Positions 39,357-43,646 of a stretch of 64,000 nt of DNA are shown in pieces (the first letter of the stretch is position 1; every line of letters begins with the position of its first letter). The notes beneath the pieces are model-generated. The model made no database searches, was not told the origin of the DNA, and saw only the letters and a program-made list of their open reading frames with translations. A program made the translations under genes and the position numbers. The stretch comes from Cyanobacteriota bacterium (lineage in GTDB: Bacteria > Cyanobacteriota > Cyanobacteriia > Cyanobacteriales > Nostocaceae), in the NCBI GenBank assembly GCA_046045965.1, contig JBJOKS010000021.1, positions 1 through 64,000 on the forward strand, written 5' to 3'.

Positions 39357-39478
39357 TTGACACTCCCCGGTATAAAGACACGGGGATTCTCAAGAAGCCC
39401 AAAAACGGACTCTTAAAGGCGTAGTCAAAGCGCCCCTATAGACTCCATCGAGGTTTAATCCCAATGTTGCCTGTACTT
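39357..39478 (-). ncRNA. IS200/IS605 right end / TnpB omega-RNA (reRNA) scaffold overlapping the tnpB 3' end
   Basis: Minus strand reads GAAT-CCCCG..CGGGG hairpin-AGTGTCAA (IS608-type GAAT guide / TCAA cleavage tetramers). An upstream loop TTGAC is complementary to the terminal GTCAA. The 5' boundary is approximate. Confidence 0.75.
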
Positions 39479-40637
39479 TTCTTAAAATATTTGCTGCCGC
39501 ATTAGCATCAGCATTAACATAAAAATTGTTAGTAGTACGATACAATCCACGCTTTATTCGTTTCCCTGATTCTTTCCACGTCACGGGTTTTTCACTGTAT
39601 TTGGGGAGAAAATCATGATCTAAAAACGAAGCTTTGGATGTATAACTTTCCTCAGTTTCTACAAACTCAATCCCGTATTGTTCACATAGTTGAGAAATGC
39701 GATTTTTTACTTTAGCAGTAGGAATTTGCACAAATGTCTGATTAAATTTTGTTCCTAAATTAACTTCTTGTCTTTGTCCTTTATTCCACCCAAAGACTAA
39801 AATTCCAATTTCATGTTTTAAGCAATGGTCTATTACCAATCTTGCTGCTTTGTTGACAGCATCACGCATCCGACGATTTCGTTTTTCTGTAATAGCAGCT
39901 AATCTTTTAGACCAAAATCCTTGGGGTTTATTTTGTTTAATAATGGCAATCTGTTTATTATACGATTGATTGACAGATTTTAAATGTCTACCATCAATAA
40001 TAAATGAAGTTCCCAGGTTAGAAACACAAGTTAACCAATTACCAATTCCTGTATCTATTCCCAGACATCTATCTGGACTTACTTGCTGTTTCTGTGTCTC
40101 TGAAGTTTGATAAACAAGCTCAACATAGAAACAACGATTACGAGGTACTATTCTTAGCTCTTTGATGTCATCAAAGTTTAAGTTAGATGACATTGGTAGC
40201 AGAAAGTTCTTCAAATTAAACCATCTATTGATAGTTGTGCCTAATGGTATTTGAATCTGCCCTTCTACTAATTTCAGTGCTTGTTTGGGGTAAGATATTG
40301 CTGCTAATCCAGGTTTTCTGTATTTAGGCAGTCTTGGTTGATATTGTAGTTCTCCTTTTCTGTACTTGCTGTTTAAAGCCTTGAATGATTTGAAAGATTC
40401 AAATACCGACAAAAGAGTTTGTTGTGCAGCTTGAGAATGCAAGGCTTGGTAATGTTTATTGTTTTTATATTCATTAATCAAATCAAACTTCTCGATTATC
40501 TTCCCTGTTTTGAAGAAGATTTGCCTGGCATAGTAAATACCGCAATTAGTTAATTTGTGAGATTCAGAACAGATAAATTCTAATATGGCTTTGAGAGATT
40601 TATCGGGTTTAATGAGATTTTGCTGGCATTTGTACAA
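39390..40637 (-). mobile_element. tnpB: RNA-guided endonuclease TnpB (IS200/IS605 family, no adjacent tnpA)
   Basis: RuvC-I LGIDTG, VFGWN...TEESYTSK (shifted RuvC-II Glu), RuvC-III NADANAAANIL; N-terminal HSQAAQQ..PRLPKYRK. TTG start at 40637 follows AGGAGG. Confidence 0.93.
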
Positions 40638-40667
40638 AAATATCACCTCCTGAAGAATAATGTTGTT

Positions 40668-40696
40668 ATTTTAGACAAAGGTGGATTATATGTAAA
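40668..40696 (-). promoter_or_regulatory. Sigma70-type promoter for tnpB
   Basis: Minus strand TTTACA-17 nt-TAAAAT, about 30 nt upstream of the start, followed by AGGAGG. Confidence 0.6.
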
Positions 40697-40758
40697 GGAA
40701 GGAGATTGAACTAAGTGGAATGTCACTGAGGGAAGACAGCCCTTGATTGGCTTTCATG

Positions 40759-40934
40759 AGGCAGTGCGTTGGTGAAACAGTCCGGTCTTGGGGTTTCCAC
40801 GCCACTTGCTACAACGGGGGGAACCCCCGCAACGCAGTGGCTCCCCAGGAGGAACTGCTGAAAGGGTTTCCCGGCTTGTTAGCGTTCGCGCAGCGTGCCG
40901 TAGGCATAGCTCTGAAAGAGGCAGCAACTGCCGT
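40759..40934. repeat. Nested stack of small dispersed (SDR-like) mobile repeats
   Basis: GC-rich island. 40799-40842 (reverse complement) and the split outer unit both match the 44-nt element at 56845-56888. Confidence 0.75.
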
Positions 40935-41093
40935 CCCCTGCTATCAAGGACGGCTAAGTTTTTCCGCCAAGATCCAAAACTTAACCTCAAGGGTTTTCAG
41001 CCTATTTTCTTATAAAACAAGGAGCAGTTAGCAAAAATTTGCTATTTTCTGCGTCTGTGCCTTGATGCCAAAAGGAGCGATGGAGGTATTTGG

Positions 41094-41291
41094 ATGCTAG
41101 TCATTTTAACGGATGATCAAATCTTTGCCCCTGAGCAAGTTTGTCAGTCTTGTTTGCTTGCTAACAATAGCGGACAACCCCGCTGGTATGGAGATAAACT
41201 GCGTTGTGGTCAAGCTATTCGCAAATGTACGGAACAACAGCCAGAGCAGTATGAGTGTATGATGGGCTTCCGGCTCGCTAATATAAAATAA
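41094..41291 (+). CDS. Small Cys-containing hypothetical protein
   Basis: 65 aa, GGAGG RBS, VCQSC and further Cys; resembles a small protein commonly found upstream of Tic20 in cyanobacteria. Confidence 0.72.
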   Translation: MLVILTDDQIFAPEQVCQSCLLANNSGQPRWYGDKLRCGQAIRKCTEQQPEQYECMMGFRLANIK

Positions 41292-41372
41292 TCTAATTTT
41301 CCAGCAATATTAAGCAGCTGCGTTATCCTATGGTCAAATAGCTATTCAAATTTAGCCATAGGAGAATTTACC

Positions 41373-41852
41373 ATGAATTGGCGCGGCTCTACTACTGTTG
41401 GTGATCGAATTTTCGCTTGTTTACCTTATTTGCTGCCTCTAGTTGAGAGTTTAGAATTTGGCAGCTTTTTGGTGAGACAGTTTCCAGTCTTAGGAGTGCT
41501 GTTGTTACCCATACTACCAGTTAAATCAGTTTACGATGCTTTGGGTTCAATAGGTCAAATTATTGTGTTTTTTGCCTTGTTCATTTTGGTGGTGAGAAAT
41601 GAAAAAATCAGTCATTTTATTCGTTTCAACACAATGCAGGCCATTCTTTTAGATATTGTGATATTTTTGTGTTCCGTAGTTCTGCAAATTTTAACTCCTG
41701 TTCCTGGTGCTGGTTTTGCCCTAGAAACCATAGCCAATACCATATTTTTAGGTATTGTGGCATCTGTAATTTTTTCCGTATTTCAGTCTTTAAATGGCCG
41801 TTATGCGGAAATTCCAGCAATTTCTGATGCTGTTTATATGCAGGTGCGCTAG
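41373..41852 (+). CDS. Tic20/Ycf60 family membrane protein
   Basis: DRIFACLPYLLPL, ISHFIRFNTMQAILLDI, GRYAEIPAISDAVYMQV. Confidence 0.92.
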   Translation: MNWRGSTTVGDRIFACLPYLLPLVESLEFGSFLVRQFPVLGVLLLPILPVKSVYDALGSIGQIIVFFALFILVVRNEKISHFIRFNTMQAILLDIVIFLCSVVLQILTPVPGAGFALETIANTIFLGIVASVIFSVFQSLNGRYAEIPAISDAVYMQVR

Positions 41853-41949
41853 GTTAAATACCAATTTGGGATTTTAGATTTTGGATTAACAGTTTTGATA
41901 ATCAGCTGTTCCCAAAATCTCAAACCATCCTAAGTATCCAAATTTGGTG

Positions 41950-42723
41950 TTAACGGCTGACAACGAGGTTTTCTAGGCGACCGATACCTTCGATTTCGAC
42001 ACGGATGCGATCGCCTACATTTAATGAACCTACGCCAAAAGGTGTACCTGTTAGCACGACATCCCCAGGTAATAGTGTCATCACTTGACTAATATAAGAC
42101 ACCAAAAAATCTGGGGAAAATACCATTTGATCAATACAGGCAGATTGGACGGGATGGGGTTTATCATTCAAAAAGGTTTGCAATTTGGCTCCTGGGTTCA
42201 ATTCTCGGACAATCCAAGGACCTAAAGGGCAAAATGTATCAAAACCTTTAGCTCTTGTCCATTGAGCATCATTTTTTTGTAAATCCCTGGCTGTGACATC
42301 ATTAGCAATGGTGTAACCCCAAATTTTGCTTTGAGCTTCCTCTGGTGTACAGTCACAAGTGCGATCGCCTATCACTAATGCTAACTCGCCTTCATAGTCT
42401 ACCCGTTGTGACTGTGGAGGATATTTAATTTCCATTTCTGAGGCGATAACAGTGGTGGGTGGCTTAAGGAAAATCAGCGGTTCAGCGGGGACGGAAGTTC
42501 CCATTTCTGCTGCATGATCCGCATAGTTCTTGCCTACGGCCACTATTTTGGAAGGTGAACAGGGAGCCAGAATTCGGTATTGGTCTGGTTCCAAAATTAA
42601 ATCCGTGGGTTGCCCTTCCATCCAAGGTGGAGCGTCCAAAACCTCGACGTTGAGGGATAATTGCAGCAACCCGTAGTAAATTTGTCCTTCTTGACTCTTA
42701 ACTCGCACATAGCGTTGCGCCAT
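41950..42723 (-). CDS. Fumarylacetoacetate hydrolase family protein
   Basis: VGKNYADH, FLKPP, DYEGEL, NDVTARD, AKGFDTFCPLGP, GDVVLTGTP. Confidence 0.93.
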   Translation of the reverse strand: MAQRYVRVKSQEGQIYYGLLQLSLNVEVLDAPPWMEGQPTDLILEPDQYRILAPCSPSKIVAVGKNYADHAAEMGTSVPAEPLIFLKPPTTVIASEMEIKYPPQSQRVDYEGELALVIGDRTCDCTPEEAQSKIWGYTIANDVTARDLQKNDAQWTRAKGFDTFCPLGPWIVRELNPGAKLQTFLNDKPHPVQSACIDQMVFSPDFLVSYISQVMTLLPGDVVLTGTPFGVGSLNVGDRIRVEIEGIGRLENLVVSR

Positions 42724-42967
42724 AACCTTGATTAATATCCTTAGAGATGCAAATTTAGGCAGATTAGGCTAATGATTTAAATCGAAAACTGGTAAGATGA
42801 TAGAAAATTGAGTCAGCCAAAACCACCTAGAGTGAGTATTTCCGCCCATCTCCAATACTTAATCATACTTTAGGTGGTGAATTACTTCTGGCGATATGCG
42901 CCAAAAGGCGCAGTCTACATATTAACAATAGAATGCAACAGTAATTTATTGTTAATATATCAAAAAC

Positions 42968-43068
42968 ACATCCCCATCAAGTTTTTGCTCTAAAGATTCT
43001 CTTCCTGACTATGGTGAAAAACCCACAAAGCGAAGAAAAACTCAAAGCAAAAAGTTTGGATTGTGCGT
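42968..43068 (+). pseudogene. Decayed fragment of a tnpB 3' region
   Basis: Translates TSPSSFCSKDSLPDYGEKP versus TSKASFLDHDFLPKYSEKP in the intact TnpB (11/19 identical). The RuvC-III segment is missing downstream. Confidence 0.7.
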
Positions 43069-43095
43069 GATAAAATACTCAAAGTTATTTGAGTT

Positions 43096-43213
43096 AAGTA
43101 AAGGTAACATTGAGAGATTCTCAGTGGAGCTATAGGGGCGCTTTGACTACGCCTTCACGAGTCCGTTTTTGGGCTGCTTGAGAATCTCTGTCCTTCATAA
43201 CAGAGAGTGTCAA
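43096..43213 (+). ncRNA. Orphan TnpB omega-RNA-like scaffold / IS605 right end
   Basis: Colinear with the reverse complement of 39357-39478: 26-nt and 17-nt identical blocks, GAAT, covarying terminal hairpin, ends in AGTGTCAA. Confidence 0.72.
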
Positions 43214-43319
43214 AGTTCCTTGTTGCTTCAGATGTTGATTTTTATCAGTAACTCACAAAGCTTACTTGTATAAAATCTACAGGAGCAGCCTTTTTTGTCC
43301 ATAAGGTGACTAAAAATAT

Positions 43320-43646
43320 ATGACCACAATTTACGAAACAATGTACATTCTTCGCCCTGACTTGGGAGATGAGCAGGTAGAGCAAGCCGTTACTAAATAC
43401 CAAAACTTGTTAACTGAACAAGGCGCACAGAATCTGGAAATTCAGAATCGTGGTAAGCGTCGTCTTGCTTATGAAATTAACAGACATCGTGACGGCATCT
43501 ACATCCAATTTAACTACACAGCCCCAGCAGGTGCGATCGCTCCTTTAGAGCGTGCTATGCGATTAAGTGAAGAAGTGATTCGCTACTTAACAGTTAAGCA
43601 GGAAGTCCGCGAAGAAAAACCAGCGAAAGAAGTTGTAACCGCCTAA
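43320..43646 (+). CDS. rpsF: 30S ribosomal protein S6
   Basis: [35 protein letters not shown]. Confidence 0.97.

Follow-up and report, generated by a model that had tools for sequence, protein, structure and literature searches.

The spacer upstream of rpsF in the Nostocaceae contig analyzed here (the window, a stretch of 64,000 nucleotides) holds a 412-bp insertion at 42802-43213 that is very probably an internally deleted, non-autonomous derivative of a tnpB-only (IS1341-type) IS200/IS605 element, that is, a PATE-like mini-transposon carrying only a guide RNA. The anatomy of this mini-element is firmly established (Table 1), and the element is young, single-copy, and limited to one lineage. 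An initial annotation of the locus had described a protein-less feature with a complete omega-RNA scaffold, which our scaffold model and the frame lengths bear out, but had placed its start at 42968, whereas the inserted element begins at 42802. Whether the RNA is made and loaded by a TnpB protein today is doubtful; otherwise, the mini-element is a passively carried young relic.

Table 1. Coordinates of the mini-element, its flanks, and the neighboring intact element within the window
Feature	Position	Strand	Basis or remarks
Intact tnpB-only element, 1655 bp	39357..41011	-	Inserted after TTTAT (41016-41012, minus strand); empty sites in G003 and G025
tnpB, 418 aa	39390..40646	-	Pfam OrfB_IS605 and Cas12f1-like_TNB; RuvC motifs conserved
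Omega-RNA scaffold of intact element	39357..39486	-	152.4 bits
Transposon-adjacent motif position	42798..42801	+	TGAT here, TTAT in all three congeners (G001, G002, and G003); differing base is 42799
Mini-element, protein-less, 412 bp	42802..43213	+	Flanks abut in 14 relatives; junctions read
Left end of mini-element	42802..42965	+	First 23 nt 91% identical to three other left ends in the same genome
TnpB C-terminus remnant	42966..43087	+	Begins just past the RuvC-II motif; lacks 12 codons with RuvC-III (translation, family alignment)
Omega-RNA scaffold (right end)	43088..43213	+	Four hairpins, loop UUGAC, GAAT, terminal hairpin CTCTGT/ACAGAG, 3' GUCAA
Predicted guide (flank), AGTTCCTTGTTGCTTCAGAT	43214..43233	+	Directly 3' of the right end
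rpsF	43320..43646	+	Pfam Ribosomal_S6, E 9e-32; 106 nt downstream of mini-element

Bounds and anatomy of the mini-element

The ends of the insertion were read from relatives in which the site is empty. When the region 42600-43450 was searched against 60 related genomes, the two flanks abutted directly in 14 of them, comprising all three congeners and 11 further relatives; none of the 60 carries the insert at the site upstream of rpsF, leaving our genome as the only carrier. The congener junctions read ...AAGATTAT followed at once by AGTTCCTTGTTGCTTCAGATG..., and those in the window read ...AAGATGAT, then 412 bp, then AGTTCCTTG..., so the insert spans 42802-43213. All three congener sites read GATTAT/AGTTCC (the slash marks the junction), and there is no target-site duplication. 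On the left, the dinucleotide AG leaves the boundary ambiguous; on the right, the insert ends exactly with GTCAA.

The left end begins with AGAAAATTGAGTCAGCCAAAACC, resembling the first bases of the intact neighboring element (AAGAAAATAGGCTGAAAACC), and contains two pairs of subterminal inverted repeats (42822-42833/42867-42878 and 42919-42930/42947-42958). The elements that share its 23-nt tip start at C34:4642, C8:130022, and C4:183161, the last being a tnpB element; past the tip, similarity to other elements is weak. The mini-element contains no protein-coding gene, and the longest frame that ends near the right end encodes 59 aa. The coding remnant lies in a frame at 42962-43135 that ends prematurely at TAG and reads TSPSSFCSKDSLPDYGEKP..., compared with TSKASFLDNDFLPKYGEKP in the family. 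As first annotated, RuvC-III has been deleted from it: alignment with the intact gene leaves a 36-nt gap, and the missing stretch encodes NFYVNADANAAA. RuvC-I and RuvC-II are also missing from the mini-element. The reported TGATAAAAT at 43068-43076 and the palindrome ACTCAAA-GTTA-TTTGAGT at 43077-43094 are both read in the window.

The same 36-nt gap was seen once outside the window, in a relative (L054 in G064, about 1430-1735), where a full-length 420-aa tnpB frame lacks the same 12 RuvC-III codons. With the near-repeat AATTTTTA/AATATTTTA on either side of the gap, such a deletion may recur. The L054 product may be a naturally nuclease-dead TnpB.

Relation to the neighboring element

The intact element 3.6 kb away is bounded at 39357-41011 by empty sites in G003 and G025 (...GTTTTAT/TGTATGTTAG...) together with a further copy in G003, 90 to 95% identical, that occupies a second site after ...AATTTAT. 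Its TnpB scores 171.7 bits against the NCBIfam model guided_TnpB (cut-off, 100) and keeps the motifs GIDTG, ETEESYTS, and NADANAA in the family alignment, from which the G008 row was left out as not being a TnpB frame; a PDB sequence search with this protein gave 0 matches. It is the only TnpB in the genome whose scaffold is similar to the orphan scaffold by blastn. Five comparison junctions (the intact copy, the second G003 copy, C34, C8, and C21b) all follow TTAT without target duplication, and the empty target of the mini-element in the congeners is ATTAT.

Some features of the leader of the intact tnpB were observed in passing. This 365-nt leader (40647-41011, minus strand) includes, at 40797-40844, a GC-rich repeat about 48 nt long that occurs in many places in relatives, and contigs of RNA and DNA runs skip 178 to 258 nt within the leader. 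Variants of the intact element without the skipped stretch may exist.

The orphan scaffold and the right end of the intact element are related far beyond chance. Positions 43088-43216 (plus strand) align to 39486-39354 (minus strand) with 80.5% identity over 133 nt (E 1.4e-25 against the 5.3-Mb genome), and a second search of genomes gave 82% over 118 nt. The alignment contains the identical blocks CTATAGGGGCGCTTTGACTACGCCTT (26/26) and GAGTCCGTTTTTGGGCT (17/17), in agreement with the initial annotation, and likewise confirms its reading of the terminal stem (CCCCG/CGGGG in the tnpB copy, CTCTG/CAGAG in the orphan) and of GAAT, the loop UUGAC, and the 3' GUCAA, all kept. The orphan scaffold is 19% diverged from that of the neighbor and has one 2-nt loop deletion and one 1-nt deletion. 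Outside the last ~130 nt (80.8% identity), the mini-element is unlike the neighbor; the differences between the two were therefore not acquired by decay of a neighbor copy. The orphan descends from a related element and not from the neighbor. No parent closer than 82% was found in 389 family genomes (E <= 1e-18, best two candidates per genome).

Origin and age of the insertion

The insertion 3' of TTAT, in the spacer between an FAA-hydrolase gene and rpsF, was made in one lineage by a relative of the neighboring element, not by the neighbor itself. Either before or after insertion, this relative was stripped of the stretch from its left end to the last ~55 tnpB codons and of the RuvC-III codons. 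It retains the left end, a stub of coding sequence, and a complete right end doubling as the omega-RNA scaffold. The initial annotation had instead envisaged a protein lost and an RNA retained in place, but what is present is an entire mini-transposon, left end included, at a site that is empty in 14 relatives. Retention of the locus at rpsF in relatives had been proposed as a check; the element is absent from that site in those 14 relatives, which argues against long-term retention. Scarless excision could, in principle, mimic a never-inserted state in the relatives.

The mini-element also occurs in independent environmental samples. One DNA run (X5) yielded a 399-nt contig covering 42815-43213 with zero differences, the end of which coincides with the right end, and a second DNA run (X6) yielded a contig across the left junction. 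At the contig level, none of the four runs X3 to X6 contains a contig joining across 42802-43213, as an empty allele would, and stretches lacking coverage carry no information.

The same TTAT junction upstream of rpsF is filled in three other genera by unrelated sequences of 190 nt (L008 in G018), 317 nt (L029 in G009), and 105 nt (L020 in G035). The three fills are unlike each other and unlike the orphan, and the G009 fill ends in ..CTGACAA. The junction may be a recurrent insertion site.

Structure of the omega-RNA scaffold

A family alignment of 11 scaffolds, including the orphan, supports four hairpins and a UUGAC/GUCAA pseudoknot: pairing holds in 96% of cells, both partners have changed in 10 pairs, and 0 of 500 shuffles did as well. 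In one divergent member, two of the five pseudoknot pairs differ at both partners. The covariance model built without the orphan (R2) matches it at 96.9 bits (E 4e-31) across positions 1-130 of 130, flagging three non-standard pairs, and the model built with the orphan (R1) gives it 110.8 bits, compared with 98 to 103 bits for scaffolds beside full frames in relatives of other genera. The minimum-energy fold of the orphan has the same four hairpins. It keeps the fewest consensus pairs of the 11 scaffolds (30/36), compared with 33 to 36 for 8 of the 10 others and 31 for the divergent G025. The first hairpin keeps 8 base pairs with three stem substitutions, all of them purine transitions opposite U, so pairing there is kept automatically. 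The terminal module, GAATC followed by a hairpin and AGTGTCAA, is common to the orphan and 19 other ends in the same genome.

Perfect complementarity of 11 nt (43113-43123/43179-43189) links the first hairpin and the GAGAAUCUCU region in the orphan, compared with 6 nt in the intact copy. This complementarity is probably a by-product of GA/UC-rich substitutions and could favor misfolding. Rfam gave 0 matches at the gathering score over the whole window; at loose thresholds, a hit to sok (22.5 bits, where 59 are needed) was rejected as a chance match.

Copy number and related ends

The genome has one copy of the orphan. No second copy of its left part was found in 61 genomes (best eight candidates each), and none was found in 389 family genomes at E <= 1e-18 (best two candidates per genome). 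Metagenome scans for exact words gave 0 matches both for the deletion junction (a 30-mer) and for the orphan-specific first hairpin, CATTGAGAGATTCTCAGTG (a 24-mer). Multi-copy evidence for mobility of the short form was thus absent from these searches, the sole hint of mobility being the X5 contig, whose end coincides with the right end.

Right ends of this kind are numerous in the genome, which has 11 OrfB_IS605 matches and 20 matches to the right-end/scaffold-like model (E <= 0.01). Six of the 20 adjoin a frame of at least 400 aa and 14 have no adjoining long frame; with the scaffold family itself found in 30 of 41 related genomes, at up to 44 matches per genome, protein-less ends are routine here. 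They include a three-copy protein-less family of ~435 bp (C34:4642-5080, C8:130022-130454, and C21:81608-82044 on the minus strand), the members of which are 87 to 91% alike and each follow TTAT. Its scaffold type, also present at C32, C18, and C8:46737, differs from that of the orphan. Further scaffolds of the orphan's own family are likewise protein-less or truncated. The one at C4:18280-18406 (minus strand) scores 65 bits, with AT-rich, unrelated upstream DNA. In L052/L096 (G002:C35), the G002 copy begins inside the scaffold.

Predicted guide and targets

The "second guide" that had been proposed for this locus is simply flanking sequence, as at every IS200/IS605 right end. Its start had been placed about 105 nt upstream of rpsF, and we measured 106 nt. 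The empty allele of all three congeners (G001, G002, and G003) matches the predicted guide at 20/20 positions beside TTAT. The initial annotation had also suggested another locus or a phage as the target, and searches of the genome, viral contigs, phages, and plasmids yielded no such target. In the genome, the guide is matched in full only by the DNA flanking the element itself, preceded by GTCAA and not by the motif. A 12-mer that follows CATTAT at C2:5756 with 1 mismatch was counted as chance; it is absent among the C2 16-mer matches listed (25 of 53). Viral contigs contained 16 exact 16-mers of the guide, of which 0/16 follow TTAT and none extends beyond 20/24 matching positions. Matches in phage and plasmid collections were at chance level (E >= 0.3), and none was cyanobacterial.

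The motif at the left end of the mini-element is now TGAT. If the motif requirement is strict, this change would block both excision and re-cutting. The flanks are 7 to 11% diverged, so a single TTAT-to-TGAT change is unremarkable.

Expression and possible use in trans

If the plus strand is transcribed, the flanking DNA would supply the guide at the end of the RNA. Such an RNA could be loaded by a compatible TnpB produced elsewhere, for which the neighbor is the one candidate judging by scaffold similarity. Empty copies of the same site, next to TTAT, would be cut by the complex, and repair would then re-copy the element, following the standard homing logic, borrowed in trans. Movement of the element itself would need a Y1 transposase (TnpA) in trans, and the genome has four Y1-transposase matches, with TnpA candidates at C1:172940 and C11:23411. 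Use of the orphan RNA by the neighboring TnpB is plausible but on balance doubtful: no plus-strand promoter was detected, the scaffold is 19% diverged with two small deletions, three flagged pairs, and 30/36 consensus pairs, and the left motif is now TGAT. It is unlikely, further still, that TnpB loads the RNA such that the 412-bp gene-less element drives into empty rpsF-upstream alleles of a multi-copy chromosome and cuts incoming congener DNA, in which this locus offers TTAT plus a 20/20 guide match. If true, the element would represent a natural gene drive consisting of a guide alone, seen shortly after its origin by deletion from a full element. Because natural empty alleles exist in three congeners, homing in trans by a borrowed TnpB is directly testable.

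Exact contigs extend across the element in two metatranscriptome runs from two studies (42035-43643 in X3 and 40987-43235 in X4), which indicates presence only and neither transcription, strand, level, nor RNA starts or ends. The earlier proposal of an own promoter was not supported: a strict scan of 42650-43400 gave no plus-strand promoter and no terminator, and TGATAAAAT is present but has no -35 partner.

The X4 data show a contig break at 43206-43235, where depth rises from 53 to 134, although contig depth is a poor measure and cannot rank expression; one record has 27 unmatched letters before 43206. The X4 break and the end of the X5 contig at the right end could be other contexts or variants of the element.

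The reading that an RNA is made and loaded competes with one in which the origin is the same and the locus is an inert fossil, its RNA not made or not loaded, and to this we give a slightly better than even chance. The scaffold would look intact because the insertion is young, and a deletion reaching the right end would hide the locus from view. The single copy, the parent not found, the absence of a promoter-like site on the plus strand, and the flanking TGAT all fit an inert locus, as do the fewest consensus pairs among the 11 aligned scaffolds (30/36) and substitutions that differ between scaffold and remnant about as in full-length pairs, with no sign of extra RNA constraint. On the other hand, the scaffold has lost neither its four hairpins nor the pseudoknot partners, exact contigs of two metatranscriptome runs contain the locus (presence only), and a compatible-looking TnpB is present.

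Insertion upstream of rpsF

A second alternative is that the insertion itself matters, as a cis-regulatory passenger that lies ~55 nt ahead of the likely -10 box of rpsF and acts by read-through or a changed promoter context. The element is oriented toward rpsF and ends 106 nt before its start, and the unrelated fills of 105 to 317 nt at the same junction in other genera indicate that the spot tolerates insertions. The step in X4 depth from 53 to 134 at 43206-43235 would also fit, but contig depth is a poor measure that cannot rank expression. Since the scan of the element gave neither a promoter nor a terminator and the rpsF-proximal 106 nt are conserved and intact, we regard a regulatory effect as improbable.

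Covariation of the terminal stem

The compensatory changes in the terminal stem had been taken as a sign that the RNA was retained after protein loss, and this argument fails. The pattern GAATCTCTG...CAGAGAGTGTCAA, that is, the CTCTG/CAGAG stem, occurs at 28 loci in other cyanobacterial genomes within quite different scaffolds, and three of these (L076, L077, and L085) have frames of 395 to 498 aa with TnpB domains that end 36 to 46 nt before the element end. As CTCTG/CAGAG is a recurrent natural variant and the orphan is not a copy of the neighbor, the covariation is no sign of selection after gene loss. Within our own genome, terminal hairpins read CCCCG/CGGGG, CTCCG/CGGAG, and CTGCG/CGCAG, so the terminal stem covaries among elements generally.

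A further candidate, L082 (Anabaena sp. CCY 9613), was considered as a full tnpB element with this stem and rejected, its 370-aa frame being EF-Tu. What the locus does contain, just after the EF-Tu gene, is a scaffold-like protein-less right end with the CTCTG/CAGAG stem.

At the right end of IS608, the guide tetranucleotide GAAT 5' of the hairpin recognizes the cleavage site TCAA, and the end is read by the transposase TnpA as DNA. GAAT, the hairpin, and TCAA would thus also be TnpA DNA signals and doubly constrained in any mobile ancestor. In a rough and weak comparison, in which cheap gaps inflate identity and the true parent is missing, the scaffold is no better conserved relative to the remnant than in full-length pairs: identity is 82% for the scaffold and, over aligned positions, at most 77% for the upstream remnant (85/200 positions gapped), compared with 78 to 85% and 71 to 79% in full-length pairs. 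Overall, we find no evidence of selection on the orphan RNA after gene loss.

That the locus is a selected omega-RNA kept after protein loss, serving TnpB as a second guide with a separate function (in protection or against another locus or a phage), is therefore very improbable: an intact scaffold beside a deleted gene, compensatory stem changes, and closeness to the only TnpB with a similar scaffold speak for it, but the stem variant is found at 28 other loci (three with verified TnpB frames), the orphan is not a neighbor copy, the rpsF site of relatives lacks the element, and the target searches gave no second motif-flanked target in the genome, 0/16 viral 16-mers after TTAT, and chance-level phage and plasmid matches.

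Comparison with known systems

The mini-element shares with its IS1341-type neighbor the TTAT motif, a similar left tip, the right-end layout of GAAT, hairpin, and AGTGTCAA, and an 81% identical scaffold; unlike the neighbor, it has neither tnpB nor the 365-nt leader and measures 412 bp, not 1655 bp. As at the right end of IS608, GAAT, a hairpin, a spacer, and TCAA stand at the exact end of the element, making these putative TnpA signals in the orphan.

Like the systems of TldR, the nuclease-dead TnpB-like repressors outlined in a preprint by Wiegand et al. (10.1101/2023.11.30.569447), the locus places a TnpB-type guide RNA near a promoter. It differs from that outline in that no nuclease-dead partner lies at the locus, the neighboring TnpB keeps its RuvC motifs, and the only motif-flanked target is the empty allele.

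Mobilized stand-alone omega-RNAs without an effector exist and work in trans, as stated in brief by Altae-Tran et al. 2023 (PMC10691335), citing the authors' 2021 paper. By that statement, the mini-element resembles the stand-alone omega-RNAs of OMEGA systems in being mobilized without effector or transposase in a genome that has an effector locus, to which it would give an extra guide in trans. Unlike them, as there described, the orphan is single-copy, is 19% diverged from the scaffold of its candidate effector, keeps a TnpB coding remnant, and has a merely predicted use in trans.

The mini-element also resembles PATE elements, minimal IS200/IS605 elements that, in the account of a preprint by Meers et al. 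(10.1101/2023.03.14.532601), often encode omega-RNAs that need the TnpB of other elements in trans. With these stand-alone RNAs and PATE elements in print, the use of a stand-alone guide by a TnpB in trans is not a new idea. The PATE elements of Geobacillus stearothermophilus in that account have, like the orphan, both ends but no gene, along with an omega-RNA needing a foreign TnpB, and the orphan likewise follows a transposon-adjacent motif without target duplication. PATE elements usually form multi-copy families, whereas the orphan is unique among the searched genomes and has the look of a recent product of deletion; the three-copy family of ~435 bp in our own genome fits the PATE picture better. 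The 412-bp element is thus an ordinary example of a described kind and not a new type of system. Its importance is modest: it is a clean, well-bounded example of how a guide-RNA-only mini-transposon originates, with the TnpB coding remnant still visible.
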